64,000 nt of DNA from Bdellovibrionales bacterium (GTDB taxonomy: Bacteria; Bdellovibrionota; Bdellovibrionia; Bdellovibrionales; UBA1609). The DNA is taken from NCBI GenBank assembly GCA_028819305.1, contig JAPPLY010000056.1:14800-78799 (forward strand), given 5' to 3'. Below, one piece after another: positions 20,292 to 51,495 of this stretch. The stretch's first letter is position 1, and each line of letters starts with the position of its first letter. The notes beneath the pieces were generated by a model. The model worked only from the letters and a program-made list of their open reading frames with translations. It had not been told where the DNA came from and searched no databases. The translations under genes were made by a program, and so were the position numbers.

Positions 20292-20900
20292 TTACAAATG
20301 ATCCTTTATTTCCAACCATTCCTCCATTTCCTTCTCTTGATACAATAAAGATTTTAACTCTTTATTTTCCTTTTCCAACAAAGCCACTAAAGTATTTAAT
20401 TCTGCTATTCTATTTTGCTGCTCACCGATTTTAAGCTCTTTTTTTTCCAAACGTTCGTAAAGCTCTTTTTGAGCATCCACCACTTTATTTAAAAACAGAT
20501 CCTCCGGCGGCAACATAAAAGAAGAGTCTTTTAATGACTTGTTAGAAAGAGGACGGCCTTCTTGTTTTTTCGTCGCAGACTTAAAAACTTCGGTTTTTTT
20601 ATTATTTTTATTCTCTTGGCTATAGGGTTCCCTCTGCTGCTCTACTTCTAAAGGAGAACCTTCCTCTGCTAAAATAATTTCTTTTTTTAAAGAAAAAGGG
20701 CTGATACTTAGATCACTTTTATTACCGACTATTTCCTTTTCTTTTTTTAAATCAACAAGGTTTCGGTCTTCTAAAAAATATTTACCCATTTTAAAACTAA
20801 AAGGAATTTGCCCCGCTCGAATTCTCCGACGAAGAGTAGAGATACTAATACGGTATTTACCAGAATACTCACCCAAAGATAACCACTGATTATTCATCAT
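20292..20900 (-). CDS. MerR/excisionase-type HTH protein with C-terminal coiled coil
   Basis: N-terminal LSLGEYSGKYRISISTLRRRIRAGQIPF resembles the excisionase/MerR HTH; the C-terminal 70 aa are heptad-like. Confidence 0.5.
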   Translation of the reverse strand: MMNNQWLSLGEYSGKYRISISTLRRRIRAGQIPFSFKMGKYFLEDRNLVDLKKEKEIVGNKSDLSISPFSLKKEIILAEEGSPLEVEQQREPYSQENKNNKKTEVFKSATKKQEGRPLSNKSLKDSSFMLPPEDLFLNKVVDAQKELYERLEKKELKIGEQQNRIAELNTLVALLEKENKELKSLLYQEKEMEEWLEIKDHL

Positions 20901-20984: not shown

Positions 20985-21152
20985 TTGACTATTCAAATGA
21001 ATATAACAAAAGAAAAACATTTGAATAGTCAAACCTTACTTTTTGGAATTATTAGTCATTATTAAAGCACAACGCGACAAGTTAATAATCAAAAAAAGAA
21101 GGAATACTTGAATCCATTAAATTGACTATTCAATAATAATTTGACTATCCAA
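20985..21152. promoter_or_regulatory. Cluster of four copies of the near-palindromic 12-mer TTGACTATTCAA
   Basis: Copies at 20985-20996, 21021-21032 (inverted), 21122-21133 and 21141-21152 (TTGACTATCCAA). The first two extend to a perfect 15-bp inverted repeat. All lie upstream of the HTH gene at 20292-20900. Confidence 0.5.
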
Positions 21153-22590
21153 AAATGAAGAGGGAGGGGATAAGCCCACTAGCTAAAATAAAGCCCGACA
21201 AAAGTAATAAACAAGAAGTCAAAAAACGGGGTAAGCGAATAAACACCTTTTTTTCTCTTATTTGCAGATCCTTTTTCATATACATAAGAGCTATGGGCTT
21301 CAGATAATAAAAAAGAGCTATGCTGGAACCTAAAATAGCCCAAAATAGCATCCACCATAAACCCTGATCCAGCAAAGCCTGAAAAACAAATAATTTTGAA
21401 ACAAAGCCTCCCGTGGGGGGAATACCAGCCAAACTCAATAAAAAAAGAGTTATTAAAAAAGCATGAAAAGGTTTTTGGTGAACTAATCCATCTAATTCAC
21501 TGAGATTCAAGGCAACACTGTCTTTTTTTTCAAAAGGTCTTAAACATATAAAAATACCCAAAGTTGTACCTATATATACTATTAAATAATAAAGTAGGGC
21601 TGTCCTTCCAAAGAAAGAACCCATTTGGGAGACAATTAAAATCATAAGTAAATAACCAGAATGAGCCACTGTAGAAAAAAGCAGCATTTTTTTAAAGTCC
21701 TTTTGAAGCAAAGCAATAATATTTCCAAATAAAACACTCAATACGGCTAACCACTGAAAAAGAGATAATAAAACCGAAAACTCCAGAAGAGAAAACATAT
21801 TTCTTGTCCATTCAAAAAGCAGTATGAATATAACCAACTTAAGACCTGTCGCCATAAGAACTAAAAGGGGAGTAAAGGAAGCTCTATATACATCCGGCAG
21901 CCAAAAATGAAACGGAAAAATAGATACTTTAAATAAAAAACCCACCAGAATAAATATAAGACCTAAGGTCAGAAGACGAGAGCTTGTAATTAATTCAGGA
22001 CTTTGTTGAAAAATTCTCTGCAAATCAAAATGCCCAGAAGAACCCACAACAAAAGAAATTCCATAAAGTAAAATAGCGGAAGCCACGGAACCTAAAACAA
22101 AGTATTTAAAACTGGCCTTTAAAGCTTGTGACCCTGTGCGTCCCAGAGCAATTAACAAATAAAAAGATAAAGAAGCTAATTCCAAGCCAATGAAAGCGAT
22201 GAGTAAATTACCCGCCCACAGTAAAATTAATAAACCAAAAAGGGAGCCTATTTTTAAAAAGAGAATTTCAGAAAAAATATTTTCATTTACCTGGGGTTGT
22301 TGAATACTCATAAGCACTATAAAAAACCCCACCAATAACAAAACAAGAGAAGCTATAGCTCTCAGTTCATTAAATACCAAAGCTTCTGAAAAAAGGGTTT
22401 TTATCTCTATATTAGAAGAGGGCCAAATCAAAAATAAAAGAACAAGGGAAGTAAAAATACCTATCAGAATAAAACCCGAAGATAAAAACAAAGAGCTCTC
22501 TTTATTTTTATTTAAAACCTTTAAGCTGATGGGGATTAAACTAAATAAAAAAAGAGACCATAAAGGAGAACTTAGAAGAAGATCACTCAT
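21145..22590 (-). CDS. nuoN: NADH-quinone oxidoreductase subunit N
   Basis: 481-aa polytopic ND2-like ORF; 4-nt overlap with nuoM. Confidence 0.85.
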   Translation of the reverse strand: MSDLLLSSPLWSLFLFSLIPISLKVLNKNKESSLFLSSGFILIGIFTSLVLLFLIWPSSNIEIKTLFSEALVFNELRAIASLVLLLVGFFIVLMSIQQPQVNENIFSEILFLKIGSLFGLLILLWAGNLLIAFIGLELASLSFYLLIALGRTGSQALKASFKYFVLGSVASAILLYGISFVVGSSGHFDLQRIFQQSPELITSSRLLTLGLIFILVGFLFKVSIFPFHFWLPDVYRASFTPLLVLMATGLKLVIFILLFEWTRNMFSLLEFSVLLSLFQWLAVLSVLFGNIIALLQKDFKKMLLFSTVAHSGYLLMILIVSQMGSFFGRTALLYYLIVYIGTTLGIFICLRPFEKKDSVALNLSELDGLVHQKPFHAFLITLFLLSLAGIPPTGGFVSKLFVFQALLDQGLWWMLFWAILGSSIALFYYLKPIALMYMKKDLQIREKKVFIRLPRFLTSCLLLLSGFILASGLIPSLFIFG

Positions 22591-24170
22591 AACCCCCCCT
22601 GTCTCCTGGTGTTATGGGTTCCAGACATATCTGATATTAATGAAAAATGTTTTTGCCCTAAACGGAAATTTTTTGTTTTGATATTCAAATTATAGTTTTC
22701 TCTGCTTTCCTGTAAGTGGTTTAAAGAAACAGTAGAGTATTTAAGAAATGCTTTAGGGAAAAGACCCATTCCAAAAACGAGAAAAACAAAAGGGAGAATA
22801 ATCCCCATTTCTCTTTTTGATAACAAAGAAGTTTTTTGAGACAAAACAGACACTGAACCAAAAAACACACGATGAATAAGATATAACATATAAGAGGCTC
22901 CAAAAATGACTCCCCATAGAGCTAAAAACAAAGCTCCCCAGTTTCTAGCTGTAAAAGACCCCATTAAAACAAAAAACTCTGAAATAAAACCTCCTGTGGA
23001 GGGAAGAGCTATAGCAGAAAGAGAAATAATAACAAAGTTGATAGCTAAAATTGGCATTTTTTTAGCCAGTCCTCCATAATCTGAAATATTTAAACTCTGC
23101 GTTCTTTCATAAAGGATTCCCACTAATAAAAACAAACCAGCAGAAGAAACCGCATGTGTGAGCATTTGGTAATAGCCCCCTGTTAAGCCATACTCATTTA
23201 AACTAAAAAGACCTAAAAGAACATAGGCCATATGAGATACAGAAGAGTAAGCCACTAGTTTCTTTATGTTCTTTTGCGCCAAAGCCATAAGAGCTCCATA
23301 AAAGATCCCCACACCGGCTAAAAAACATATAGAAGAGGCAAAAAACTCCACAGATTGGGGAAAAAGAGGCAAAACAAAGCGTAAAAATCCATAAGCTCCC
23401 ATTTTTAAAATGACCGCGGCTAATACAGCCGATCCGGGAGCAGGAGCCTCCACATGAGCCAGTGGCAACCAGGTGTGAAAAGGAACAAACGGGAGTTTTA
23501 TCGCAAAAGCTAAAAAGAAACAAAAAAACAAAACATTTTGAGTGCTCAGCAAACTCGCTTCAAAGGGTAACTCCAACTTGTAAAAATCCAATAAACTAGC
23601 GCTCATTTCCCCTGTCGATTGTAAAGTAAGATGCATTAAAGCCACTAAACCTGCCAGTAAAAATAAAGACCCAAACGCCGTATAAATAAAAAACTTAAAA
23701 GCCGCATAGATCCTCTCTTTACTACCCCAAATCCCAATAATGAAATAAAGAGGAATAAGAGAGCTTTCAAAAAAAATATAAAAAAGAATAGTATCCATAG
23801 CCAAAAATGTGCCCATCACAGAAGTAATCATCAAAAATAAACAACAATAAAAAGCAGATACCTTCTCCTTTATCAAATTCCAAGAAGCTCCCACACAAAC
23901 TGGCAAAAGAAAAGCCGTTAAAATAACAAACCAAAAAGAGAGACCATCCACCGCTACAAAATATTCAATGCCCAAAGCCGGAAACCAGGAAAACCGCTCC
24001 CCTAATTGTAGTTCCTCTGTTTGAGAGTCAAAAAATAAAAATAAGCTCAAACTAAACAAAAAGTACGCTACGGAACAAAAAGCAGCTCCTTTACGACATA
24101 AAGAGGGGTTTTTTATAAAAACCAGAATTAAAGCAAAAACCAAAGGTAAAAAAATTAAAGCACTGAGCAT
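22587..24170 (-). CDS. nuoM: NADH-quinone oxidoreductase subunit M
   Basis: 527-aa polytopic ND4-like ORF. Confidence 0.85.
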   Translation of the reverse strand: MLSALIFLPLVFALILVFIKNPSLCRKGAAFCSVAYFLFSLSLFLFFDSQTEELQLGERFSWFPALGIEYFVAVDGLSFWFVILTAFLLPVCVGASWNLIKEKVSAFYCCLFLMITSVMGTFLAMDTILFYIFFESSLIPLYFIIGIWGSKERIYAAFKFFIYTAFGSLFLLAGLVALMHLTLQSTGEMSASLLDFYKLELPFEASLLSTQNVLFFCFFLAFAIKLPFVPFHTWLPLAHVEAPAPGSAVLAAVILKMGAYGFLRFVLPLFPQSVEFFASSICFLAGVGIFYGALMALAQKNIKKLVAYSSVSHMAYVLLGLFSLNEYGLTGGYYQMLTHAVSSAGLFLLVGILYERTQSLNISDYGGLAKKMPILAINFVIISLSAIALPSTGGFISEFFVLMGSFTARNWGALFLALWGVIFGASYMLYLIHRVFFGSVSVLSQKTSLLSKREMGIILPFVFLVFGMGLFPKAFLKYSTVSLNHLQESRENYNLNIKTKNFRLGQKHFSLISDMSGTHNTRRQGGL

Positions 24171-24185
24171 AGCTATTCACTCCCT

Positions 24186-26090
24186 TCAAAAAAGGAACAC
24201 CGAGAGAGTACAAATAATTAATCCTAAAAGCATAAATAAAATATAACTCTGGGTTTTTCCGTTTTGAGCACTTTCAAACAACTCTTGTAAAACAAGTAAT
24301 TTTTTTTGAATCAATATAATAAAACCTTGAATCATCTTTACATCTACACCCCACCAAAGATCATAACTGACATTTAAAACCGGGCGCACCATTTTAGAAT
24401 AACAAAAGGAGTCCACACCCAAGGCAGCCTCTAAAGCATCAAACACAGTTTGGTTTTTCTTTTTTAAAAAGAAAACTGTTTTTTGCCTTTTTAAATAAAG
24501 CCAAAAACTGATTAAGACAATGGATAAAATGAAAACCGAAGACCCTATCATTAAAATACCCTCTGCTAAATGAGTCCCCTTAAACTGTTTTTGAATAACT
24601 ATTGGTTTTAAATATTCTGCAAGTAAATGAGGAGGATGACCTGGTAAATACTCACTGATTAAATGAGGAATACCTATAAAACCCCCTAAGACAGAGAGAG
24701 TCGCCAATATTCCCAAAGGAAATTTAGCAAAGAACCCCCCTTCATGGGGGGTTACCCCTGATTTTAAACGACTTGTACCATGAAAGACCAAAATATAAAG
24801 CCGGCTCATATAAAAAGCGGTTACAAAAGCCGTTAACAAAATTAAAGAAAATACAGCAAATTGTCCAGAAGCTAAAGCCGACCACAAGATTTCATCCTTA
24901 CTAAAAAAACCCGAGAAAGGAGGCAAGCCAATAAGGGCTAAGAATCCTATAAGAAAGCACAACCAAGTAAAAGGAAGTTTCTTCCTCAGCCCGCCCATGT
25001 TATAAATATTTTGTTCCCCATTTAAAGCATGAATCACGGACCCGGCGGTTAAAAACAAAAGTGCTTTAAAAAACGCATGTGTAAGAAGATGAAACAAAGA
25101 AGCTGTAAAAGCCCCTAAACCAGCCGCTACACACATATAACCTAACTGAGAAACAGTAGAATAAGCCAGCACCTTTTTAATATCACTCTGTGCACAAGCA
25201 ATAAAAGCAGCCAACATAGCTGTCATAGCGCCCACCCAACTAATAAGAGTTAACACTTCCGGTGCTAAAATAAATAAAGAATGCATCCTCACTATTAAGT
25301 AAATACCGGCAGTGACCATGGTAGCCGCATGAATCAAAGCAGAAACAGGAGTAGGACCCGCCATAGCAGAAGGAAGCCAAATATATAAAGGAATCTGAGC
25401 CGATTTACCGATCACTCCCATAAACAAAAAGAAACAGGCCCACTTTACAGCACTTAAATGAACGGAACCAGGGGCCCCCTCAGATAAAACATCAAACTGC
25501 AAAGAAGCAAACTCTTGAAACAAAAGAAACATTCCCAACAAAAAACCCACATCACCTATACGATTAACAATAAAAGCCTTCATACCGGCCGCGGCTTTTT
25601 GCTTATCTGTAAACCAAAAACCTATGAGTAAATAAGAACAAAGCCCCACTCCCTCCCAACCTAAGAACATGAGAAACAAATTATCTGCTGATACTAAAAC
25701 AAGCATACTAAAAATAAACAAATTGAGATAAGAAAAATACTTCGCAGGCCGATCATCATGTGACATATAATACAAACTAAAAACATGAATCAAAAAACCC
25801 ACTCCCGTTATCAACAACAGCATTAAAACACTCAAAGGATCTACTAAAAAAGAAAAGGAAACTTTAAAAGAGGATATATTTAGCCACTCAAAAAAAGAGA
25901 CCAAAAAATCAACTTTCTTTTGGGATAAGAAAGAAAGAAATAAAAAACCCGCGCTCAAAAAAGAAATAAAACAAGATGTAACACCAATAAAACCCGCTAT
26001 TTTAAGATCAGGCTTTTTCCATCTAAAGCCATTTATCAAAGCTCCTATTAAAGGAGCCAACAAGAGAGCCATAAGGGCTATTTTCATCAT
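24186..26090 (-). CDS. nuoL: NADH-quinone oxidoreductase subunit L
   Basis: 634-aa polytopic ND5-like ORF. Confidence 0.88.
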   Translation of the reverse strand: MMKIALMALLLAPLIGALINGFRWKKPDLKIAGFIGVTSCFISFLSAGFLFLSFLSQKKVDFLVSFFEWLNISSFKVSFSFLVDPLSVLMLLLITGVGFLIHVFSLYYMSHDDRPAKYFSYLNLFIFSMLVLVSADNLFLMFLGWEGVGLCSYLLIGFWFTDKQKAAAGMKAFIVNRIGDVGFLLGMFLLFQEFASLQFDVLSEGAPGSVHLSAVKWACFFLFMGVIGKSAQIPLYIWLPSAMAGPTPVSALIHAATMVTAGIYLIVRMHSLFILAPEVLTLISWVGAMTAMLAAFIACAQSDIKKVLAYSTVSQLGYMCVAAGLGAFTASLFHLLTHAFFKALLFLTAGSVIHALNGEQNIYNMGGLRKKLPFTWLCFLIGFLALIGLPPFSGFFSKDEILWSALASGQFAVFSLILLTAFVTAFYMSRLYILVFHGTSRLKSGVTPHEGGFFAKFPLGILATLSVLGGFIGIPHLISEYLPGHPPHLLAEYLKPIVIQKQFKGTHLAEGILMIGSSVFILSIVLISFWLYLKRQKTVFFLKKKNQTVFDALEAALGVDSFCYSKMVRPVLNVSYDLWWGVDVKMIQGFIILIQKKLLVLQELFESAQNGKTQSYILFMLLGLIICTLSVFLF

Positions 26091-26103
26091 AACATTTTTC
26101 CCT

Positions 26104-26187
26104 ATACCTATTAGGTATTATTGTTTCTATAACTTTCCGGTTCTTTCCTCCAGGCAACCAAGCTTTTACAATCAAAAATTTTTAAAC
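26104..26187 (-). repeat. Intercistronic repeat copy a (nuoK-nuoL spacer)
   Basis: ATACCTA-T-TAGGTAT hairpin plus an AAGCTT-containing tail; about 70 percent identical (59 of 84 aligned columns) to 29518-29599. Confidence 0.75.
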
Positions 26188-26499
26188 AGGGTCGGTATAT
26201 TTAGAATCTTCTAAAACAAAAAGATCCATCTGTGTCCACCTGCGACTGATAAGCACAATTAAGGCTAAACCCACTCCCGCTTCCGCCGCCGAAATAGTCA
26301 TTACAAAAAAAGCCGCCACTTGAGCCGAAAGTAAATTATAAAACTGACTAAAAGAGACAAAAGAAAGATTAACCGCATTCAACATCAACTCTATGCTCAT
26401 AAGTATAATCAAGAGATTCCGGCGCGCTAGCACACCAAAAAAACCAATAACAAACAACAAGAGAGAAACTATTAAAAAGTGATTTAATTCTATTTCCAT
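26182..26499 (-). CDS. nuoK: NADH-quinone oxidoreductase subunit K
   Basis: 105-aa three-TM ND4L-like ORF (SIELMLNAVNL, AAAEAGVGLA). Confidence 0.88.
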   Translation of the reverse strand: MEIELNHFLIVSLLLFVIGFFGVLARRNLLIILMSIELMLNAVNLSFVSFSQFYNLLSAQVAAFFVMTISAAEAGVGLALIVLISRRWTQMDLFVLEDSKYTDPV

Positions 26500-26502
26500 T
26501 TA

Positions 26503-27021
26503 TTATTCCTTTTCCGAAGGAGTTTGCAAAAAAGGTCGCTGGCGACATAAAACAGCGACCCCTACAGCTATCAGGAGAAGTAAGATCCCCAGCACTTCAA
26601 AAGCCAAAACATAATCTATAAACAATAAAGAAGAAAGATCCTTTGTAGAAGTCTTTTGAATCGTTTCCATGGAACGAGGAGGAAATAAATGAAGAGAAAA
26701 AGGAAAAATGCCTACGATCAAACCAGACAAGAAGAATAAACTGGCTAACTTCATCCAAAGCCCTTTACTAAATAAAGTTTCTTTTTTTCGTTTTAAGTCA
26801 AAAAGCATCACGACCATAATAAATAACACCATAACAGCACCTGCATAAACGAGGACTTGCACTCCCGCTATGAAATGCGCTCCTAAAATAAAAAAAAGCC
26901 CTGCTAAAGCCAGCATAGACCCCGCCAAATGCAAAGCGCAGATCACCATATCTTTATGAGTGACGGTAATAACAGCACCATATAAGGCCAAAGCGGAAAA
27001 CAAGATAAACAAAAAGTCCAT
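26503..27021 (-). CDS. nuoJ: NADH-quinone oxidoreductase subunit J
   Basis: 172-aa ND6-like ORF. Confidence 0.8.
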   Translation of the reverse strand: MDFLFILFSALALYGAVITVTHKDMVICALHLAGSMLALAGLFFILGAHFIAGVQVLVYAGAVMVLFIMVVMLFDLKRKKETLFSKGLWMKLASLFFLSGLIVGIFPFSLHLFPPRSMETIQKTSTKDLSSLLFIDYVLAFEVLGILLLLIAVGVAVLCRQRPFLQTPSEKE

Positions 27022-27024
27022 TAA

Positions 27025-28176
27025 TTAAACCCCTCTCATTAAAAAAACCCCTATTCCTGTTATAACTGTGTTCACTAAGGCCCAAGGTAAAAGGGTTTTC
27101 CATCCTAAATCCATGAGTTGATCATATCGAAACCGAGGAAGTGTCCAACGCACCCAAATAAATATCCAAAGAAAAAAAAGCAATTTTATCAAAAACACCA
27201 AATGCAAAACTAAAGCTGTCAAAATACTCTGACCTGTAGAAGACAAAAAATGAAAAAAAGACTTCAGTGTATCCGGTGTTAAAAAAGGCCATAAAGTATA
27301 TCCTCCAAAATAAAAAGTCACCATTAAAGCCGAAGCCACCAGCATGTGACCATATTCCCCCATATAAAACATAATAATTTTTACTCCTCCGTATTCTGTA
27401 TGGTAACCTGCTACTAACTCTGCCTCCGCTTCTGGCAAATCAAAAGGAAGCCGATTGGCTTCTGCAAATAAAGCCACAAAAAGCAAAAGAGCTCCTAAAG
27501 GTTGGTAAAAAATTCCCCAATTAGGAAGAAAAGCAAGTTTTACTGGTTCTCCAAAAAAATAAAATTGCAATGGGCCATTTTGAGCCGCCACTATTTCAGA
27601 AAAGCTAAAAGTATTAAAAAGGAGAAGCACACCTACTATAGAAAGACTTAAAGCTAATTCATAGCTAATGGCCTGAGCAGAAGCTCTTAAGGCGCCATAA
27701 AGAGAAAACTTGCTGCCAGAAGACCAGCCCGCCAATAATAAAGAATACACAGCTAAGGAACTTACACCTAAAACAAAGACAACACCAATACTAATAACAA
27801 AAGATTGAAAATAAAAAGTATAAGGTCCCCATGTTTGTCCTAACCATTTAAAAGCTTCCACCTCTATAGGGGTAGAAAGAGGAATAGCACCAAAAGCTAA
27901 GGCCGCGGGAATAAGAGATAAAACAGGGGCTGAATAAAAAAAACTCTTTCGTCCTTTATGACCCAAAAAATCTTCTTTACATAAAAACTTTACGAGGTCC
28001 GCTAGATTCTGCATCAGTCCTAACGGGCCAATCCGATTCGGACCAAAACGGTTTTGAATAAAAGCAGATCCCCTTCTTTCCGCCCAAACCAAAAAAGGCA
28101 CCATTTGCACCATTAGTAAAAAAATAAAGGCTATTTTAATAAAATTAATCCCTACTTCAAAAAGATCACTTCCCAT
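27025..28176 (-). CDS. nuoH: NADH-quinone oxidoreductase subunit H
   Basis: 383-aa ND1-like ORF (ERRGSAFIQNRFGPN, PFDLPEAEAELVAGYHTEY). Confidence 0.9.
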   Translation of the reverse strand: MGSDLFEVGINFIKIAFIFLLMVQMVPFLVWAERRGSAFIQNRFGPNRIGPLGLMQNLADLVKFLCKEDFLGHKGRKSFFYSAPVLSLIPAALAFGAIPLSTPIEVEAFKWLGQTWGPYTFYFQSFVISIGVVFVLGVSSLAVYSLLLAGWSSGSKFSLYGALRASAQAISYELALSLSIVGVLLLFNTFSFSEIVAAQNGPLQFYFFGEPVKLAFLPNWGIFYQPLGALLLFVALFAEANRLPFDLPEAEAELVAGYHTEYGGVKIIMFYMGEYGHMLVASALMVTFYFGGYTLWPFLTPDTLKSFFHFLSSTGQSILTALVLHLVFLIKLLFFLWIFIWVRWTLPRFRYDQLMDLGWKTLLPWALVNTVITGIGVFLMRGV

Positions 28177-28242
28177 ATTTTTTTCTTCCTTCGTGGGAGA
28201 TTCATTATCCTCTTCCTATTTTTTCCCTTCTCCTTAAAGACA

Positions 28243-28275
28243 ATACCCCTCGGGTATTATTTTTCCGGAGTTTTC
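28243..28275 (-). repeat. Intercistronic repeat copy b (nuoA-nuoH spacer)
   Basis: ATACCC-CTC-GGGTAT hairpin followed by TATTTTTCCGGAG; 19/20 match to the hairpin core of 44815-44834. Confidence 0.65.
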
Positions 28276-28324
28276 AAATCCAATCGAAATACATAGCTAA
28301 AACAACCACTTTATTCTTCCGTCC

Positions 28325-28702
28325 CTATTTCCATCGTAATGCTTTAGAACCGATTTCCCAAAACAAACCATAGACGAAAATGAGAAGAAACACTATCATG
28401 GCCACAAGCGCTTCTAATCCCTGACCTTGATTTAAAAAATCTTTAAATGTTAAAGCCCAGGGATAAAGAAAAATGATTTCTATATCAAATAAAATAAATA
28501 AAATAGCTGTTAAGTAAAACTGTACTGATACACGTGAACTGATTTGCTCTTCTCCTTCAAGACCACATTCATAAGGCAAACTTTTAGCTTTGGAGGCCGG
28601 TTTTTTCACCTTCGCGCCAAACCAATGAGCAAGGGATAACATAAAAGCCCCAAAAGTAAGGACAATTAAACTACAAATTAAAACCGGTACTAAAGAATCC
28701 AT
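28325..28702 (-). CDS. nuoA: NADH-quinone oxidoreductase subunit A
   Basis: 125-aa ND3-like ORF (PYECG, FDIEIIFLYPW). Confidence 0.88.
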   Translation of the reverse strand: MDSLVPVLICSLIVLTFGAFMLSLAHWFGAKVKKPASKAKSLPYECGLEGEEQISSRVSVQFYLTAILFILFDIEIIFLYPWALTFKDFLNQGQGLEALVAMIVFLLIFVYGLFWEIGSKALRWK

Positions 28703-28761
28703 TTTTCTCCTATAAGATAAAAGAGTCTAGCCTCTCTTTTTTTCTCCACCTTTACGAAAAA

Positions 28762-29499
28762 TTAAAATATACTTTTAAAGTACTCCCTATTCATCCTAGC
28801 AATGGAATGAAGGGAAATCTCTTTAGGACAAGCGCGAGAACAAGCCCCTGTATTAGTACAAGCCCCAAAGCCTTCTTTTTCCATTTGTTTCACCATTTTT
28901 AAAACCCGTGCCTTTTTTTCCACCTTTCCTTGTGGCAATAAAGCCAGATGAGATACTTTAGCAGCCACAAACAAACTAGCAGAAGCATTTTTACAAACAG
29001 CTACACAAGCTCCACAGCCAATACAAGCGGCATGGGAAAAAGCCTCCTCCGCTTTGGCTTTTTCTACGAGTATACTATGCGCTTCCGGAGCTTGACCTGT
29101 ATTAACAGAAACATAAGCACCAGACTGAATGATACGATCAAAAGCAGAACGATCTACAATCAAATCCTGAAGAACAGGGAAAGCTTTAGCCCGAAAAGGC
29201 TCTATCCATATTTCTTCCTTATCTTTAAAAGATCTTAAATGCAGCTGACACACCGCTGATCCAGCATGAGGGCCATGAGGATTACCATTTATTACTAAAG
29301 AACAAGAACCGCAGATTCCTTCCCTACAATCATGGTCAAAAGCCACAGGCACTTTTTTTTGCCCAACCAGATCTTCATTTAACTGATCCAGCATTTCTAA
29401 AAAAGACATATCCGGTGAGAGATGATCCATTTCATAATTTTCAAAGCTCCCTTTTTTCTGACCTCTTTTTTGTCTCCAAATTTTTAGTTTTAATAACAT
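28762..29499 (-). CDS. sdhB: Succinate dehydrogenase/fumarate reductase iron-sulfur subunit
   Basis: 2Fe-2[10 protein letters not shown] and 4Fe-4[12 protein letters not shown] / [12 protein letters not shown] clusters. Start moved to ATG 29499 (MLLKLKIW) because the track's extra 34 codons are covered by repeat copy c. Confidence 0.85.
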
Positions 29500-29517
29500 A
29501 AACTCTAGTCCTTTTTT

Positions 29518-29599
29518 ATACCCAGAGGGTATTATTTTTTCGTAACTTCTCGGCCTTTTTCCCTTGTTAGCCAAGCTTTTAAAACTGAAATTTTCAAAC
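29518..29599 (-). repeat. Intercistronic repeat copy c (sdhA-sdhB spacer)
   Basis: ATACCC-AGA-GGGTAT hairpin plus an AAGCTT tail; about 70 percent identical to 26104-26187. Confidence 0.75.
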
Positions 29600-29644
29600 A
29601 CGAGCAGTATAATTCATCACACAAACTTGTAAAACATTTTTTTC

Positions 29645-31555
29645 TTATTTATAACTCCGCACACTTAAAGATACTTCTTTAAACTCTAAAGGTTCTTTAT
29701 GCAAAAGAGCCTTTTTTCCTTCTGTATGCTCCCAAACGGATACATGACAAAAATGTTCATCATCTCTTAAAGCCTCCTGCTCTTGACTTTGATATTCCTC
29801 GCGAAAATGAGAACCACAAGACTCCTTCCGTTCCAAAGAATCCTGAGCCATTAGCTCGGCCAATTCTAAAAAATCAGCCACGCGTAAAGCTTTCTCTAGT
29901 TCCGCGTTTTTATAGTGCTGCTCTCCTGGAATGAAAAGCTCTTTCCAAAACTGATCTTTCAAACCTTGTATAGCTGTTATCACCTGTATTAAACCTTTTT
30001 CATTCCTTAACATACCTACATATTCCCAAAGCAAATACCCCAGTTCACGATGAATGGCTCCTGCCGTCTTACCCCCTTTTATTTGCAAAACCTTATCCAG
30101 TCGCTTTTGAACTTCTTTTACACTCTCCTCCAACGCTTTTTTTACCTTCTTCTCTTCCAAAGAAGAACGCTCGACCAAATGCCGAGCTATCGTCCTGGGA
30201 ATAATAAAGTACCCATCCGCCAAACCCTGCATAAGAGCAGAAGCCCCTAAGCGATTAGCTCCATGATCGGAAAAATTAGCTTCTCCTAAAACAAAAAGCC
30301 CTTTCACTGTGCTTTCCAGATTATAATCTACCCAAAGCCCCCCCATCGTATAATGTACAGCCGGATAGATACGCATGGGTTTTTCATAAGGGTTTTCTCC
30401 TGTTATCTTTTCATATATCTGAAATAGATTGCCATATTTTTCCGAAAGAAAATTTTTACCCCTTCTCTCTAAAGCTTCTTTGAAATCCAAATACACCGCT
30501 TCTCCTGTAGGGCCTACCCCTTTTCCCGCATCTACTTGAAATTTAGCCTGTCGAGACGCCAAATCTCTAGGAGTTAAATTACCAAAAGAGGGATAAATTC
30601 TTTCCAGATAATAATCTCTTTCCCCTTCAGGAATATTTTCCGGCACTCGTTTATCCCCGGATTTTTTAGGAACCCAAATCCGCCCATCATTTCGAAGAGA
30701 CTCAGAAAGCAAAGTTAATTTAGATTGGTGATCTCCAGAACGGGGAATACAGGTAGGGTGAATTTGGGTAAAACAAGGGTTAGCAAAAAAAGCCCCTTTT
30801 TTATAACATCGCCAAGCCGCACTAGCATTGGAGTGCATGGCATTAGTAGAAAGATAAAAAATATTGCCATAACCCCCTGTAGCTAAAATCACCGCCTGAG
30901 CAAAATGGCTTTTTATCTCCCCTGTTAACAAGTTACGAGTGACAACTCCAGCCACTTGTCCTTCTACCACTGCTAAATCCATCATTTCATGGCGAGGAAA
31001 AAGCCTCACTCCCCCTTTATCCACCTGCCTCATTAAAGCCCCATAAGCTCCTAATAGAAGCTGTTGTCCTGTTTGTCCCCGAGCATAAAAAGTACGAGAC
31101 ACTTGCGCCCCGCCAAAGGAGCGATTCGCTAAAAGCCCTCCGTACTCTCTGGCAAAAGGCACCCCCTGTGCCACACATTGATCTATGATCTGATTAGAAA
31201 TCTGAGCGAGGCGATAAACATTAGCTTCCCTGGAGCGAAAATCCCCTCCTTTGATAGTATCATAAAATAATCTCCTTATAGAATCTCCATCTCCAGGGTA
31301 ATTCTTAGCTGCATTAATACCGCCCTGAGCCGCAATAGAATGCGCCCTTCTAGGAGAATCCTGAATGCAAAAAGTTTTTACCTGATAACCTAGCTCTGCC
31401 AAAGAAGCCGAAGCCGAAGCCCCTGCCAAACCCGTTCCTACTACAATTATATGGTGTTTTCTTTTATTAGCCGGATTCACAAGAGGTAATTCAAAACAAT
31501 GACGATCCCACTTTTGTTCTAAGGGACCTGAAGGAATATGATTGAAAAACTTCAT
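29645..31555 (-). CDS. sdhA: Succinate dehydrogenase/fumarate reductase flavoprotein subunit
   Basis: FAD-binding GTGLAGASA and [12 protein letters not shown]. Start placed at ATG 31555 ([10 protein letters not shown]), 5 nt after the sdhC stop; the longer track ORF overlaps sdhC. Confidence 0.9.
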
Positions 31556-31560
31556 TCTCT

Positions 31561-32232
31561 TCACCCCCCTTTTTCTGTCATAAAAAAGAACACATACAAA
31601 GGCAAAGATACATATCCCATAGTAACAAATACAGCATAACCAAAACTCAATTTCTTTATCCAAAAATCAAACCGAGGATGACTTAAACCTAAAGACTGAA
31701 AAGAGGATATCAAACCATGAAATAAATGAACACAAAGAACCAACAAGGCAATGAGGTACCATAAAACAGTCACCGGTTTTTGGAACTCCTCCACCACGAG
31801 CTGAAACAAGTTCCTTATGGTCTTACCCTCATAAACCACCTCATAATAAGTTCCAAATTTAAAAGTAATAAGATGTAAAACCACAAAAACCAAAATAATT
31901 GCCCCTTGAAATATCAAACTTTTTTGATACCAGGCGGTCGCTTTCCAGCCGGAAGCCTGCCGAGCGTATTTCTCAGAGCGAGAGAAATAATTTTTTACAC
32001 TTAAAAAGAGAGCTAATATTATATGAAGTAAAAAAGCAGCCAAAAGCCCCACTTGAATAAAAAAGGCGGCTTTCCCATGCACCATCTGATGCATATATAA
32101 ATTATAGGCTTTATCCCCAGCAAAAATAAGCAAATTCCCTAGCATATGCAGTAAAACAAAAAGGGCCAGGCCCAGACCTGTTAAGCCAATTAAATATTTT
32201 TGCCCTATAGACAAGAAAAACCATTTTCTCAT
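31561..32232 (-). CDS. sdhC: Succinate:quinone oxidoreductase cytochrome b subunit (single large type-B anchor)
   Basis: 223-aa five-TM ORF with conserved His residues; C-A-B gene order as in Bacillus and Wolinella type-B enzymes. Confidence 0.75.
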
Positions 32233-32328: not shown

Positions 32329-33213
32329 TTGAACATTTTGGTTTGTATAAAACAGGTGCCGGATACCGGAACCCGTATTCAACTTTTAAAAGAGGGAAAA
32401 GGGATTGACGAATCAGGAATAGAATGGATCATCAACCCTTATGATGAATTTGCTTTAGAAGAAGCCTTAAGAATCAAAGAAAGAATACCCAATACAAGGG
32501 TTCAGGTTTTAAGCCTAGGCCCCCCTCGAGTAGAAAAAGCCCTTCGTACAGCCTTGGCTATGGGAGCAGACAAAGCTGTTTTAATCGAAACACCAGTGAG
32601 TCCCTCCTCGTCAGAAGAAAAACCTTCCTTATTAAACAAAAACCCCGCCCTTGTAGCGCAAGCTTTAGCTCAAATCATATCATCACAAAAAGACTTTACC
32701 TCGCCAGAAGGTTTAAAAAAAGCCTCCTTTGAAGAAAAAAAGAATCCTCCCGCTGAAAAGATAAAGTGGGACCTCATTTTGACTGGCAAAGTAGGTATAG
32801 ATGAAAGTCATTTCGCTACAGGCCCCATGTTAGCCGAAAAATTAAATATTCCCCATGTGGGTTTTGTAACAAAACTCCAAGAGAAAATTAAAAATATTTG
32901 GTTATGTGAGCGACAAGGGGAAGAAGGAATAATAGAAGAAATTACATTGCATCTTCCCGCTCTAATCACAGTAGAAAAAGGCCTTAACGAACCCCGTTAT
33001 CCTTCTTTACCAGGAATTATGAAAGCCAAAAAGAAAGAGTTAAAAAAAATAAAGCTTTCTACTTTAGACATTCACTATGATAAGCAAATGATAACTTTTC
33101 ATTCTTACCAACTACCAAAAGAATCACCCCCTCCTCGGTTCATTTCCGGTTCCGCTGAGGAACAAGCAAAAAAATTAATTCACATACTAAAAGAAAAAGA
33201 AAAATTAATCTAG
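32329..33213 (+). CDS. etfB: Electron transfer flavoprotein beta subunit
   Basis: TTG start; N-terminus NILVCIKQVPDT typical of EtfB. Confidence 0.88.
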   Translation: MNILVCIKQVPDTGTRIQLLKEGKGIDESGIEWIINPYDEFALEEALRIKERIPNTRVQVLSLGPPRVEKALRTALAMGADKAVLIETPVSPSSSEEKPSLLNKNPALVAQALAQIISSQKDFTSPEGLKKASFEEKKNPPAEKIKWDLILTGKVGIDESHFATGPMLAEKLNIPHVGFVTKLQEKIKNIWLCERQGEEGIIEEITLHLPALITVEKGLNEPRYPSLPGIMKAKKKELKKIKLSTLDIHYDKQMITFHSYQLPKESPPPRFISGSAEEQAKKLIHILKEKEKLI

Positions 33214-33251
33214 ATTTATAAAAAACACAAACCTCTTTAAAAAGGAAACTT

Positions 33252-34235
33252 ATGTCTCAGGTAAAAGCCCTTATTTCCGTTGACTTTCTAAACCAACAAG
33301 CCAAAAGCTCTAGTCTGGATTTACTCTCCTTCGCTCTTCATCAAAACTGGCAAGTTTGCGCTTTATGCCTAGGAGCCAACAAAGAAGCTATAGAAACAGT
33401 AAAAAAACAAGGAGCGCAGGAAATTTTTTTCCATCCAGATAAGGCTTCCAACCCCCAAAATCTAACTCCTTTTGTATCCGGCTTTATAAAAGAGCAAAAA
33501 CCAAATGTCATTTTAGCTTCTTCCTCCTCAAAAAACCTAGAACTCTTCCCCAGAGTCGCTTTTCGCTTAAAGCTGCCCTTTCTCTCTGACTGTCTCGACC
33601 TTCAATGGCAAAAAGATTCTTGGATAATTGAAAAAAGTTTTTATGCGGGAAAATGCCAAGCCCGATCCCACTTAAATGTGTTACCTGATACCCCTCCTGT
33701 TGTTTTAATACGCCCCCATCAAGTCGGACAACAAGAAGCCTTTACAAACAGTAAAGATAGTTCTGTAACGGAGCTGACATGGAACATTCCAGAAAGTACT
33801 AATTATAAGCTAGTCCGAACAAAAAAAACGCAAAAAAGTAAGCGACCAGAGCTAACAGAAGCTCAGATCATCATCTCAGGGGGAAGAGGAATGCAAAGCC
33901 CTGAAAATTTTAAATTACTGGAAGACTTGGCTAACTGTTTAGGACCTGAGGTTTCTGTAGGAGCTTCCCGCGCCGTCACGGACGCTGGCTGGGTGCCCCA
34001 CTCTATGCAAGTAGGACAAACAGGAAAAACAGTTAGTCCTCAACTTTACATTGCCTGCGGTATTTCAGGTGCTATTCAGCATCTAGCTGGAATGAACCGT
34101 TCTCGAATTATTGTTGCTATCAATAATGATCCCTCCGCTCCTCTGTTCCAAAAGAGCCACTACGGACTAGTAGGAGATCTCTTTAAAATCATCCCCTGCC
34201 TCATAAAAGAATTAAAACAACAAAATAAGAATTAA
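33252..34235 (+). CDS. etfA: Electron transfer flavoprotein alpha subunit
   Basis: C-terminal FAD-binding motif PQLYIACGISGAIQHLAGM. Confidence 0.88.
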   Translation: MSQVKALISVDFLNQQAKSSSLDLLSFALHQNWQVCALCLGANKEAIETVKKQGAQEIFFHPDKASNPQNLTPFVSGFIKEQKPNVILASSSSKNLELFPRVAFRLKLPFLSDCLDLQWQKDSWIIEKSFYAGKCQARSHLNVLPDTPPVVLIRPHQVGQQEAFTNSKDSSVTELTWNIPESTNYKLVRTKKTQKSKRPELTEAQIIISGGRGMQSPENFKLLEDLANCLGPEVSVGASRAVTDAGWVPHSMQVGQTGKTVSPQLYIACGISGAIQHLAGMNRSRIIVAINNDPSAPLFQKSHYGLVGDLFKIIPCLIKELKQQNKN

Positions 34236-34369: not shown

Positions 34370-35242
34370 ATGTTTACATATATCCTTCTTCTTTTTAGTT
34401 TTTTAATAGCTTTCCCCTCTCAAGCGGAAGTTTTAGCCACTATATCTTACACAGGAAAAAAAGGGCCTGTTAAAATCCAAATCACCCATAAAGAATTTAG
34501 AAAAACTTACAACACTGTAAGGCAAGTAGCTCCTAATGCTCCTTCTATTCAGCAATTCTTTCAGGAATATTTACGTTATCGCATAGGGGTGGAAGCGGCC
34601 TACAATGACCCCCGGTTTATTAAAAACCCGGCCTTAAGAAACATGTTCGCCGACCCTTTACTTAAAGAGGGTTTTGAGCAATTATTATACAAAAGCTTTG
34701 CCGATAAAAAATTAAAGAAAAGAATAGCTCAACTAGATAAAACAGCTAAAAAATTATCTAAAAATGTAATGCTTAAATTTTATAGAAAAAACCCTGAATA
34801 TGATATGCACTTTATCGTTATCAGTTTACCGGCTGACCCCAAGCCTTTCCAAGTTAAAGCGGCTCAAGAAAGGGCTATAAAAGTCTATAATGAAGTAAAG
34901 AACAGTAAAAAACCTTTCCCAGAGTTAGTGGACATTTATTCAGATGATCGCTTAAGTGGCCGTATTAATATGCCTCGTTCTGCTAATACTATTTATCCTA
35001 CTATTTATAAACAGTTAAAAAAAATGAGAGCAGAGCAAGTCTCCCACCCTATCCGGGCCGGTAATGGCTTCTATATAGTGAAATTAAATCGCAAAATTCC
35101 TTTTGGAGAAGCTAACCGCACCCAAATTAAAGCGGCTTACTTTGATCAAAAACGCAGTCGAATTTTAGCTCGATATTTTGATAGCTTAAAATCAAAATAT
35201 AAAGTACAAATAAATAAAGCCTCCTTAAATAAACTTCGTTAA
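34370..35242 (+). CDS. Secreted parvulin/SurA-like peptidyl-prolyl isomerase
   Basis: Signal peptide (FPSQAEV), PpiC-like C-terminal part (SHPIRAGNGFYIVKL). Confidence 0.6.
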   Translation: MFTYILLLFSFLIAFPSQAEVLATISYTGKKGPVKIQITHKEFRKTYNTVRQVAPNAPSIQQFFQEYLRYRIGVEAAYNDPRFIKNPALRNMFADPLLKEGFEQLLYKSFADKKLKKRIAQLDKTAKKLSKNVMLKFYRKNPEYDMHFIVISLPADPKPFQVKAAQERAIKVYNEVKNSKKPFPELVDIYSDDRLSGRINMPRSANTIYPTIYKQLKKMRAEQVSHPIRAGNGFYIVKLNRKIPFGEANRTQIKAAYFDQKRSRILARYFDSLKSKYKVQINKASLNKLR

Positions 35243-36176
35243 TGAAAACTCTTTTTCTTCCCACTCTTATTTTAAGTTTGTGGGTATTTAGTGGCTGCTC
35301 TTTTTTTAATAAAAATCCGGTCGTTTTACAAATCAACTCAGACAAATTAACGAGTCGTCAGTTTGCAAAACGTTTAGCTCAAAAAATACACTCTTTAAAC
35401 ATTCAAGAGGTCAAAAACCAAGAACTGATAGAAAACCTTAAAAGACAGCTTGTTACAGACTTAATTATGGAAACTCTCATTAAGCAATGGGCCAAATCCC
35501 ATTCGATTTCTATATCCAAAAAAGAGCTTCATCAAGAATTACAAAAAATAAAAAGCAAATATCCTGATAAAGAAGCATTCGAATGGTATTTAAAAAGAAA
35601 AAAAACAAAAGTAGAGGAATGGACAGAACATATAAAAAATAACTTGCTTAGCCAAAAAGTTATGCAAAAAATGGGTTCTAAAACCCCCCCCCCTCTTTAA
35701 AAGAAGTAAAAGAATATTACCAAAATCACCTCCCCCTTTTTACACAAAAACCCCGTGTTCTGATTTATCACATTTTTCACAAACAAAAAGAAGTGCTTAT
35801 TAAAATAGAAGAAAGTTTAAAACAAGAAAAGAATTTAGTAAAAATAGCTAAAAAATTCATCAAAGACCCTCAAATGCTCAAACCCCAATGGGTGGAAAAA
35901 GGAGTTTTAGAAATATTTGACCAAGCTCTTTATCTAAAAAAAAAGGAGATCAGTCCTATCTGGTCCAGCCCCTACGCTCACCACATTATTCAAGTCTTAG
36001 ATAAAAAACCGAAGCAACAAATACCTTTTGAAAAAGTGAAACAGTCTATTAGCGGGACATTGCTGAAACAAAGGCAAAAAGCTCTCTTTATAAAATGGCT
36101 AGATGAACAAAGCAAAAAAGGGGTTATATTAAAAAATGAAGCCGCTTTAGAAAAAATAAAAGTGGATTTACTGTAG
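35242..36176 (+). pseudogene. PpiC/PrsA-like lipoprotein gene split by a frameshift at a C10 tract
   Basis: ORF 35242-35700 (lipobox VFSGC) and ORF 35793-36176 are one gene. The second frame is already open from 35682 and reads SLKEVKEYYQNH...; the frames meet inside C10 at 35684-35693, and C11 or C8 would restore a ~311-aa protein. Confidence 0.7.
35684..35693 (+). repeat. Homopolymeric C10 tract
   Basis: Counted directly in the sequence; it is the site of the frame change. Confidence 0.95.
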
Positions 36177-36268
36177 ATTTCCACAGATACCTCTTTTTCT
36201 TTTCCTCCCGGAGTATTTTACTTGACGGCGACAGAGAAAGTAGATTGAAAAATAAGCTATTTCAGATA

Positions 36269-36300
36269 GGAAAAAGGCGGGCCTTTTCCCATTTTTACTT
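36269..36300 (+). terminator. Possible intrinsic terminator after the PpiC-like gene
   Basis: GGAAAAAGG-CGGG-CCTTTTCC stem-loop followed by a T-rich run (CATTTTTACTTTTTT). Confidence 0.4.
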
Positions 36301-36441
36301 TTTTCCCATTTGCTTTTTTCTTTTTTTAAGTTTAAATAAATACGAGGATTTCTGATCCATTCGATATAAAATCGAAATTTATTTTTTATTAACTATATAA
36401 GTATGGAAAACCAAATTATAACTTTATTTTAAACAGTCATT

Positions 36442-37368
36442 ATGAAATATTTATCTCTTTTTTTATTCTCTTTTTGTTACCTTACATCTGCTCAAACCAT
36501 TGAAAAAACCCTGGCTATTGTAGAAACAGAAATGATAAGTCTTATGGATTTAAAAGAAGCAAAAAAAAGATTAAACAGAGGCTTTTTTGAAGATTCCCTC
36601 TTGCTCACTTTATTTGAACCATCTCAACTAAAAAAAACAGAGGCGGCTTTTCTAAACTTTCTTATTTATGAAAAAGTTTTAGATCTTCTTGTAGAACAAG
36701 CTGAGTTAAAAATAGCAGACGCTCACTTAAAGCAAGAAATAAACAACAGAAGAAAAAAAAGAGGTTTATCGAAAAAAGCTTTTAGCCGATACTTAGTTAA
36801 AAACCACTTTACTTCTTCCTCTTATAAAGAGTTCCTAAAAAAAGACCTCTTAAGAAGACTCTTTGTTCAAAGAGAAATCGCAGAAAAAATAAGGTTTTCC
36901 GATCAAGACTTAAACGAATACGCCCGCCAAACACAAGGAACAGCTCTTTTTACCTCATTTGAATATGAACTCACCTACCTGTTTTTTCCAAAAACAAATA
37001 GAGGAAAAACACGCTCAAAGGACATTTCTCATCTTATTTTAAAAGAAGCTTCTTTTTTTGATAAATGGGAACCAAAAGAAAAAGGAGAAAAAAAGAAAGT
37101 TTTAAAAAAAATAAAGTTATCTAGCCTGCATCCTACTATTAAAAGGGCTATAAAAAACCTTTCTACGGGACAAGTGTCTCCTGTACTTTCCCTTCCCTCC
37201 GGGTATCATATCTTCAAAGTTGTCTGGAAAACCCCTGTTATTACTGATAAAAACAAAAAACGGAAAGAGAAATTATTTGTACTCTTATTTGAAGCTCTGT
37301 TTAAAAAAAGGTTTAAGCTTTGGCTTGAAGAAAAAAAGAACAAAACCTTTATTCAAATCAACTCATGA
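36442..37368 (+). CDS. surA: SurA-like periplasmic chaperone/PPIase
   Basis: Signal peptide, SurA-N-like start (LAIVETEMISLMDL), parvulin-like C-terminus (GQVSPVLSLPSGYHIFKV); conserved surA-pdxA linkage. Confidence 0.7.
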   Translation: MKYLSLFLFSFCYLTSAQTIEKTLAIVETEMISLMDLKEAKKRLNRGFFEDSLLLTLFEPSQLKKTEAAFLNFLIYEKVLDLLVEQAELKIADAHLKQEINNRRKKRGLSKKAFSRYLVKNHFTSSSYKEFLKKDLLRRLFVQREIAEKIRFSDQDLNEYARQTQGTALFTSFEYELTYLFFPKTNRGKTRSKDISHLILKEASFFDKWEPKEKGEKKKVLKKIKLSSLHPTIKRAIKNLSTGQVSPVLSLPSGYHIFKVVWKTPVITDKNKKRKEKLFVLLFEALFKKRFKLWLEEKKNKTFIQINS

Positions 37369-44797: not shown

Positions 44798-44814
44798 ATA
44801 GTGGTTTTCTCCTT

Positions 44815-44847
44815 ATACCCCTCGGATATTATCCCCGTTTCCGCAGG
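44815..44847 (-). repeat. Intergenic repeat copy d (gyrB-gyrA spacer, proximal to gyrA)
   Basis: ATACCCCTCGGATATTATCCCCGTTTCCGCAGG; related to copies b and e. Confidence 0.65.
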
Positions 44848-44887
44848 TAAGTCTTTTGACTTCTATTCTCTTATGAAAAGCACCTAA

Positions 44888-44930
44888 CTCTGTGGGTATT
44901 ATCCCCATTTCCACGGGAGCAAGCTTTTCC
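44888..44930 (-). repeat. Intergenic repeat copy e (gyrB-gyrA spacer)
   Basis: GGGTATTATCCCCATTTCCACGGGAGCAAGCTTTTCC; 27/30 identical to the reverse complement of 8220-8249. Confidence 0.7.
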
Positions 44931-45006
44931 ATGGCTTTTTGTCTTCTTAAGTTTCATCTCTAAAAACCAGAAACTTTTAAACAGGATCGGTATTAAAAAC
45001 CGCCCA

Positions 45007-48606
<3,600 letters not shown>

Positions 48607-48607
<1 letters not shown>

Positions 48608-49815: not shown

Positions 49816-49899
49816 ATTGAATCAGACTCTTAGAGGAAAAAAATTATAAAAAAAGCAACGACTATTAAATATAAATATTATAATAGCAGTAGTAGGCTT

Positions 49900-49996
49900 T
49901 GTTGATAACAAATAATTAATAAATAAGCACTTAAAATCATAAAAAAAACGATATAACAAAATGAGTAAAATAAGGATGTGGAAAAAATGTTGATAA
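49900..49996. other. Candidate oriC segment: three DnaA-box-like 9-mers in the AT-rich dnaA-dnaN spacer
   Basis: TGTTGATAA at 49900-49908 and 49988-49996, TGTGGAAAA at 49977-49985; each is one mismatch from TGTGGATAA. Confidence 0.45.
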
Positions 49997-50026
49997 GTAA
50001 AAAAAGAAAAAGAAAGACCTGTTTTT

Positions 50027-51448: not shown

Positions 51449-51495
51449 GTTTTATTTAGGGCATAAAAAGTCATAAAGCTATCATAAACCTCTGC

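Follow-up and report, generated by a model that had tools for sequence, protein, structure and literature searches.

The 64,000-nucleotide stretch of DNA analyzed here (the window; positions 14,800 to 78,799 of contig JAPPLY010000056.1, assembly GCA_028819305.1) comes from a Bdellovibrionales bacterium. On its minus strand, the genes sdhC, sdhA and sdhB are followed directly by nuoA, nuoH, nuoJ, nuoK, nuoL, nuoM and nuoN. We consider it very probable that, in this small-genome member of the Bdellovibrionales, the nuo genes of the array specify the membrane half of a conventional complex I (proton-pumping NADH:quinone oxidoreductase), the genes of which are split into two clusters. By analogy with cultured relatives, we infer that this sublineage also keeps a second cluster with nuoB to nuoI. 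The nuoAHJKLMN arrangement as such is already known; it is a described phylum-wide feature of Bdellovibrionota. The sole new element is the junction between sdhCAB and nuoA, a change in gene order near the replication origin in two closely related metagenome genomes. The evidence that we present ourselves consists of gene identities, gene order, the nonconserved sdh linkage, catalytic residues and selection, and the second cluster is drawn from the literature on cultured Bdellovibrio.

In the enzyme that we propose, nuoA-H-J-K-L-M-N would lie near the origin and the peripheral genes nuoB, a fused nuoC/D, nuoE, nuoF, nuoG and nuoI in a second, distant cluster. The products of both clusters would assemble into one enzyme. 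NuoEFG would oxidize NADH, and NuoI and NuoB would relay the electrons to quinone in the cavity formed by NuoD, NuoB, NuoH and NuoA. Protons would be pumped by NuoH, J, K, A, N, M and L.

Membrane arm genes in the window

None of the seven membrane subunits (A, H, J, K, L, M and N) is missing, and each open reading frame (ORF) matches one specific Pfam family. The ND3 homologue nuoA (28325-28702, minus strand like all genes of the array; 125 amino acids) matches PF00507 with 99.7 bits. The ND1 homologue nuoH (27025-28176; 383 amino acids), which encodes the quinone-tunnel and E-channel subunit, matches PF00146 with 335 bits, and the ND6 homologue nuoJ (26503-27021; 172 amino acids) matches PF00499 with 107 bits. 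These three pass the Pfam gathering scores and no NCBIfam equivalog cutoff. NCBIfam subfamily or equivalog cutoffs are passed by the products of the other four genes: the ND4L homologue nuoK (26182-26499; 105 amino acids; NF004320, 105 bits, cutoff 57), the ND5 homologue nuoL (24186-26090; 634 amino acids; NF005141, 695 bits, cutoff 556), the ND4 homologue nuoM (22587-24170; 527 amino acids; TIGR01972, 521 bits, cutoff 264) and the ND2 homologue nuoN (21145-22590; 481 amino acids; TIGR01770, 337 bits, cutoff 333). NuoL is complete including its C-terminal region, with positions 4-626 of the 630 in model TIGR01974 aligned to residues 7-628.

The genes are tightly packed. The gaps are 59 bp between sdhB and nuoA, 148 bp between nuoA and nuoH, 3 bp between nuoH and nuoJ, 3 bp between nuoJ and nuoK, 91 bp between nuoK and nuoL and 15 bp between nuoL and nuoM; nuoM and nuoN overlap by 4 bp. 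The ORF map and the Pfam and NCBIfam matches thus bear out the gene order, the minus strand and the gap sizes that had been given in a first-pass annotation of this DNA. The same annotation had noted that nuoB to nuoG are absent between nuoA and nuoH, and nuoI between nuoH and nuoJ. This is also correct: gaps of 148 bp and 3 bp leave these genes no place, and the window holds no homologue of them elsewhere. When we used NuoB, NuoCD, NuoE, NuoF, NuoG and NuoI of E. coli (NC_000913) as tblastn queries, none had a match at E<=1e-3 in the 64-kb window, and a control query, E. coli NuoH, matched every source. When the tblastn search was extended to the window and 81 loci, none of these six peripheral-arm proteins had a homologue in any relative within 10 kb of nuoH. 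Apart from the array, Pfam matches on 53 ORFs, which cover all but three of those of at least 110 amino acids, point only to housekeeping genes.

Conservation across Bdellovibrionales

Is the membrane-only cluster peculiar to this genome? A scan for NuoH in one genome per species gave 80 loci (81 sources were compared in all). Nearly all of these loci are labeled Bdellovibrionales, Pseudobdellovibrionaceae or Bdellovibrio. Locus L001 is from the same organism as the window, and the closest relative (L002) has a NuoH that is 94% identical; across the 80 loci NuoH identity to the window is 60-94%. The order nuoA-H-J-K-L-M-N is identical in every relative locus that is long enough to show it (tblastn with the window proteins). 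It is present, for example, in B. bacteriovorus Bd5, s4 and YOA24 as well as in Bdellovibrio spp. HCB117 and HCB209. The position on the chromosome is similar too: measured from nuoH, the distance to dnaA and the replication origin is about 22 kb in the window, and in B. bacteriovorus Bd5 the cluster lies about 25 kb from the chromosome end.

If the membrane arm worked with a redox partner other than the peripheral arm, one might look for that partner beside the cluster. Clustering of all ORFs of the 81 loci and annotation of the conserved neighbors revealed no conserved non-Nuo gene of this kind. The neighbors that are conserved are mfd, atpA/G/D/C, a GH3 hydrolase, a patatin, a small helix-turn-helix (HTH) protein, lon and moxR. 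We considered them as alternative sources of electron input and rejected them, as none is a plausible redox partner.

The small HTH protein is a 202-amino-acid ORF (20292-20900, minus strand) downstream of nuoN. It has a weak N-terminal match to HTH_17 (E=0.004) and a charged C-terminus that looks like a coiled coil. Homologues occur in 39 sources and lie 3' of nuoN wherever positions are listed. In the window, nuoN is followed by this small gene and then by lon.

Catalytic residues and selection

Of the 47 reference residues that we compared with E. coli and B. bacteriovorus by alignment, 43 are conserved, among them every core residue of the quinone site and the proton channels. The four residues that differ or are unaligned (NuoJ E80, NuoL D563, NuoN E154 and NuoN Y300) are not core residues. 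In E. coli numbering, NuoH keeps all 15 of its reference residues (E36, R37, D63, E71, E157, R209, D213, E216, E218, E220, E228, R286, L289, R293 and K303) and NuoJ keeps Y59, G61 and V65. Also kept are R25, R26, E36 and E72 in NuoK; E144, D178, K229, H254, H334, H338, K342, K399 and D400 in NuoL; E144, K234, K265, E407, H322 and H348 in NuoM; and E133, K217, K247, K395 and H224 in NuoN.

The quinone cavity of complex I is walled jointly by two loops of NuoH and by NuoB and NuoD. One of the two NuoH loops connects transmembrane helices 1 and 2 (ERRGSAFIQNRFGPNR...LADLVKFLCKED), the other helices 5 and 6. Both are canonical when compared with chains in the PDB, where NuoH matches ND1, NdhA and NuoH chains only. 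They are invariant against outgroups and nearly invariant in the 80 orthologues, of which all carry the motif ER..Q.R.GPN and 78 carry NR.PFD. NuoA has the ND3-type PYECG loop (SLPYECGLEGEE), the loop by which the NuoB/NuoD cavity is closed; among 78 NuoA orthologues the motif E[CS]G is found in every one and YECG in 72. The first-pass annotation had proposed to inspect those residues of NuoH and NuoA that normally contact NuoB and NuoD, and they turn out to be intact (15/15 in NuoH; PYECG in NuoA). Such features have a meaning only with a NuoB/NuoD partner.

The ratio of nonsynonymous to synonymous substitutions per site (dN/dS, Nei-Gojobori) against L002 is 0.05-0.18 for all seven nuo genes, at dS values of 0.35-0.69, which are unsaturated. 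Against three further relatives dN/dS is similar. On this evidence the nuo genes of the window are functional and under strong purifying selection.

Within NuoH we also observed two insertions relative to the E. coli protein, at residues ~102-127 and ~203-216, and it is because of them that NuoH is 383 amino acids long. The first is shared with a public Bdellovibrionales NuoH representative (P0001) and not with the outgroups. The second is shared with P0001 and with another public representative from NCBI (P0002), and is shorter or absent in outgroups. P0002 is 63% identical to the window protein over residues 5-308 and then continues in unrelated sequence. In this protein from a metagenome genome, the aberrant C-terminal third is probably due to a frameshift or misassembly.

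The second cluster in cultured relatives

This bacterial group is already known to carry its membrane and peripheral genes at separate places. According to the 2026 description of the Peredibacter starrii HCB2-198 genome, nuoAHJKLMN occupies the same place on the chromosome of all predatory and nonpredatory Bdellovibrionota, its phylogeny tracks that of 16S rRNA, and in other Bdellovibrio-and-like organisms the nuo arrangement is termed split (PMC13147790). Bdellovibrio had already served as an example of a "split" nuo operon in Degli Esposti 2015, where its NuoD was analyzed (PMC4758237).

The other half of the enzyme is documented in B. bacteriovorus HD100. In the metabolic model iCH457, the rule for the proton-pumping NADH dehydrogenase combines Bd3892, 3891, 3890, 3889, 3888, 3887 and 3886 with a second group, Bd3086, Bd3085, Bd3084, Bd3083, Bd3081 and Bd3080 (PMC7529429 supplementary file 7). 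Owing to the fusion of nuoC with nuoD, the enzyme has 13 genes. A quantitative HD100 proteome from 2025 detected the second-cluster proteins Bd3086 (NuoB), Bd3085 (NuoC/D), Bd3084 (NuoE), Bd3083 (NuoF), Bd3081 (NuoG) and Bd3080 (NuoI), and from the membrane cluster Bd3891 (NuoH) and Bd3888 (NuoL) (PMC12546842 supplementary data 1). In the supplements of two complex I phylogenomics papers we found no searchable Bdellovibrio entry.

The HD100 locus tags can be tied to the loci that we examined. In one B. bacteriovorus locus (L063, 17028-18843) nuoN is followed by a MoxR ATPase (AAA_3) and a DUF58 protein, a pair that is absent from the window. In HD100, the gene adjoining nuoN, Bd3885, is annotated as "methanol dehydrogenase regulatory protein" (PMC12546842), which matches the MoxR of L063. 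In E. coli, RavA, an ATPase of the MoxR family, is reported to interact with complex I (PMC3893208).

The first-pass annotation had suggested, as one of two readings, that the Q (quinone) and N (NADH) modules are encoded elsewhere. The relatives favor this reading, and in HD100 the set is complete; on this reading the sublineage of the window itself would have a second set as well.

The junction between sdhCAB and nuoA

Upstream of nuoA the window carries a succinate dehydrogenase cluster that consists of a flavoprotein, an iron-sulfur protein and one b558-family membrane subunit, as assigned by NCBIfam cutoffs. The single cytochrome b558-family anchor is encoded by sdhC (31561-32232; TIGR02046, 134 bits, cutoff 96). 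The ORF of sdhA spans 29645-31663 (NF005749, 1105 bits, cutoff 866; TIGR01811 is also above its cutoff). Its true start is likely to be an ATG at ~31555, downstream of the ORF start, as the family alignment begins at residue 39. The ORF of sdhB spans 28762-29601 (NF005746, 411 bits, cutoff 243), and here the true start is likely to be 29499, with a public gene call of 245 amino acids.

Among the 81 sources, sdhCAB is found upstream of nuoA only in the window, together with L001 from the same organism, and in L002. In 60 of the 80 loci a divergent mfd occupies this place, in many cases with atpA-G-D-C beyond it. The mfd/atp neighborhood without the sdhCAB junction is also found in L003 and L004, whose NuoH proteins are 86-88% identical to that of the window. 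Since these two relatives already show the ancestral context, the junction must be young and narrow in its distribution.

How did it arise? In HD100, sdhCAB corresponds to Bd0024-Bd0026 and nuoA-N to Bd3892-Bd3886. If the locus tags of HD100 start at dnaA, as we presume they do, dnaA separates the two clusters, which are about equally far from it, and the direction of transcription is away from the origin in both. Suppose that a segment containing the origin was inverted, with one breakpoint between mfd and nuoA and the other immediately behind sdhB. Then sdhC, sdhA, sdhB, nuoA and the remaining genes to nuoN would follow one another in this order on one strand, and dnaA and the origin would come farther along, as they do in the window. 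We infer that the adjacency of sdhCAB is a recent, lineage-specific rearrangement, most simply explained by one such inversion. The physical linkage to complex II, which the first-pass annotation had found suggestive, is not conserved, and sdhCAB does not count among the genes of complex I. No shared function is implied beyond the fact that both feed the quinone pool.

The spacer between sdhB and nuoA does not contain a conserved nuoA promoter; we considered this possibility and rejected it, as the sequence before the start codon is not conserved when aligned with that of relatives. Promoter-like matches in the region are no more common than in shuffled sequence. On the other side of the sdh genes, etfB and etfA (32329-34235) are divergent from sdhC, and the same pairing is found in L002.

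Weighing the explanations

Several observations weigh against a split but otherwise conventional complex I with a recently acquired sdh neighbor. The source that describes the cluster phylum-wide speaks of "another nuo cluster" in predatory strains alone and is ambiguous for nonpredatory Bdellovibrionota (PMC13147790). By exact protein matches, the window lies on the ENA scaffold ROBB21-1_SAMN13943215_METAG-scaffold_641 (89,975 bp) and on Logan contigs of SRR10996925. The genes nuoB, C, D, E, F, G and I were found neither in the 64-kb window nor in about 16 kb of additional flanking sequence from this population. Complete chromosomes of relatives are only 1.3-2.8 Mb; these are reduced genomes, so that a loss of the second cluster is, formally, conceivable. 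A protein search seeded with E. coli NuoCD gave no Bdellovibrionales NuoCD among the 120 proteins listed; these all share 78% or more identity with E. coli, and almost all belong to Enterobacterales or their insect endosymbionts, so that a closer seed would be needed to reach this lineage. (Among NuoH representatives, the Bdellovibrionales form a single cluster, and identity to the nearest full-length outgroups is 45-50%.) As to the junction, the inversion scenario is drawn, by analogy, from gene order in one distant cultured relative. We also found no terminator-like site or hairpin in the 59-bp spacer between sdhB and nuoA, and co-transcription of sdh and nuo is possible.

One could therefore argue that the membrane arm is an orphan: the peripheral genes would have been lost, and the arm would work with another redox module such as SdhAB or ETF, or as a lone cation or proton transporter. 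The missing peripheral genes and the small genomes of relatives fit this idea, as do sdhCAB directly upstream on the same strand, with its short spacer, and the divergent etfBA. Modified complex I enzymes with other electron donors do exist in other groups (PMC4453560). However, B. bacteriovorus has the same membrane-only cluster, with partner genes that are located elsewhere and expressed. No non-Nuo gene is conserved beside the cluster across the 80 loci (the neighbors being mfd, atp, the small HTH gene, lon and moxR), and the sdh adjacency is limited to two very close genomes. The cavity residues of NuoH and NuoA, moreover, are conserved and under purifying selection. We therefore regard an orphan arm as very unlikely. 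The second reading of the first-pass annotation, a membrane arm with a different electron-input partner, finds no support on the same two points: no conserved non-Nuo partner flanks the cluster, and the quinone-cavity residues are intact. If it were true that relatives with small genomes lack nuoB to nuoI, this would be a rare natural case of a selected orphan membrane arm of complex I; nothing that we found points there. It is even harder to see the array as a decaying remnant, a nonfunctional relic of complex I left by genome reduction. The lineage has a reduced genome, and the NuoH of P0002, with its unrelated C-terminal third (possibly a frameshift or misassembly), could be taken as a sign of decay. 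But the seven ORFs are full length against the family models, every core catalytic residue is kept, and dN/dS is far from what one would expect of a relic (0.05-0.18 against L002 and similar against the three other relatives). We give this explanation hardly any credence.

It is also very improbable that sdhCAB-nuoAHJKLMN has been selected as a single respiratory unit, a super-operon that co-regulates complexes I and II. The shared strand, the short spacer and the lack of a terminator-like hairpin between sdhB and nuoA are compatible with such a unit, and L002 keeps the arrangement. Yet the junction exists only in two genomes with 94% NuoH identity, and L003 and L004, at 86-88%, have the ancestral mfd/atp neighborhood. 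Promoter-like sites occur at the frequency of shuffled sequence, and one inversion would account fully for the adjacency. Taken as one proposition, that the peripheral cluster has been lost and the membrane arm either relies on another partner or is co-expressed with SdhCAB as a new respiratory unit, these ideas have very little chance of being right. The first-pass annotation had also named two observations that would refute an unusual reading of the array, namely that the sdh linkage is not conserved in relatives and that a complete nuoBCDEFGI set exists elsewhere. The former is what we found; the latter is found only in the cultured relative. A split complex I has a practical consequence as well. 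Annotation pipelines that score complex I by the completeness of a single cluster will miscall this phylum as "Nuo-partial."

Other features of the window

The spacer between nuoA and nuoH (28177-28324) is 148 bp long in the window versus 21 bp in L002 (9980-10000), and the extra ~127 bp hold the palindrome ATACCC-N3-GGGTAT. Exact copies of this palindrome are located at 28243-28257 in the nuoA-nuoH spacer and at 29518-29532 in the sdhA-sdhB spacer, and variants at 1513, 26104, 32282, 40308 and 44815. Allowing for at most two mismatches, the window contains 9 sites when 1.2 are expected, and most of them fall between genes. None of the relatives' loci has the exact form. The palindrome may be a species-specific hairpin similar to repetitive extragenic palindromic sequences, or an operator.

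In the origin region (42347-56166), the minus strand carries dnaA, dnaN, recF, gyrB and gyrA, and the plus strand carries rnpA, yidC, jag (R3H) and mnmE. The gene dnaA itself is located at 50027-51448 (minus strand), and the GC skew changes sign at ~50 kb. A few kb from the origin, at 56717-58421, an unannotated ORF of 280 amino acids is followed by an AbiEii nucleotidyltransferase toxin (type IV toxin-antitoxin). Next to these genes, at 58505-61743, there are two large ORFs without any Pfam match.

Elsewhere in the window, a single ORF of 361 amino acids (3172-4257, minus strand) contains both a NadD-type, cytidylyltransferase-like domain and the ribosomal silencing factor RsfS, and the public assembly likewise has it as one gene. 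At 34370-38312 three ORFs similar to SurA and peptidyl-prolyl isomerases precede pdxA, which resembles the surA-pdxA neighborhood of proteobacteria. On the same scaffold, past the right end of the window, an ankyrin-repeat protein adjoins mnmG (L084, 13104-13793), and farther on there are two large ORFs with Peptidase_S74 domains.

Comparison with known systems

The antiporter-like fold of NuoL, NuoM and NuoN (PF00361) is shared with antiporter modules of the Mrp/Mbh type. To our knowledge, Mrp systems have no homologues of NuoH and NuoA; they do have MrpE, MrpF and MrpG. We rule out an Mrp-type antiporter: NuoH and NuoA are present, the best NCBIfam matches of the three large subunits are NuoL, NuoM and NuoN and not MrpA or MrpD, and the ORF map shows no MrpE/F/G-like ORFs in the cluster. 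Eleven-subunit Nuo enzymes, which lack NuoEFG, have the same NuoL/M/N fold. Unlike the array in the window, they retain nuoB, C, D and I in the operon. With 148 bp between nuoA and nuoH, 3 bp between nuoH and nuoJ and no homologue in the window, the array does not belong to this group.

A complex I with dispersed genes is not unusual. In cyanobacteria the genes for the single enzyme NDH-1 are divided among several syntenic groups (PMC4758237), and in most clades split and single-cluster forms of complex I are mixed (PMC12361115). The split points differ, however, from those of other split gene sets: here the separation is strictly between membrane and peripheral arm, with nuoI among the peripheral genes.

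Closer to the window, Peredibacter starrii HCB2-198 has the same seven-gene cluster, and unlike the window it has a complete 14-gene nuo operon in addition (PMC13147790). The closest likeness is to B. bacteriovorus. The neighborhoods differ, with a divergent mfd before nuoA and moxR-DUF58 after nuoN in B. bacteriovorus, and sdhCAB before and the HTH gene and lon after the cluster in the window. In HD100 the second cluster (Bd3080-Bd3086; nuoI, G, F, E, C/D and B) is documented, whereas the window is known from its membrane cluster only. At the residues checked, the two differ solely at NuoL D563 (K in the window, N in B. bacteriovorus), NuoN E154 (K versus E) and NuoN Y300 (F versus Y). Otherwise the agreement is close: NuoH of B. 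bacteriovorus strains is 62% identical to that of the window, all core catalytic residues are the same, and HD100 has the same membrane-only order A-H-J-K-L-M-N (Bd3892-Bd3886), near the origin in both.

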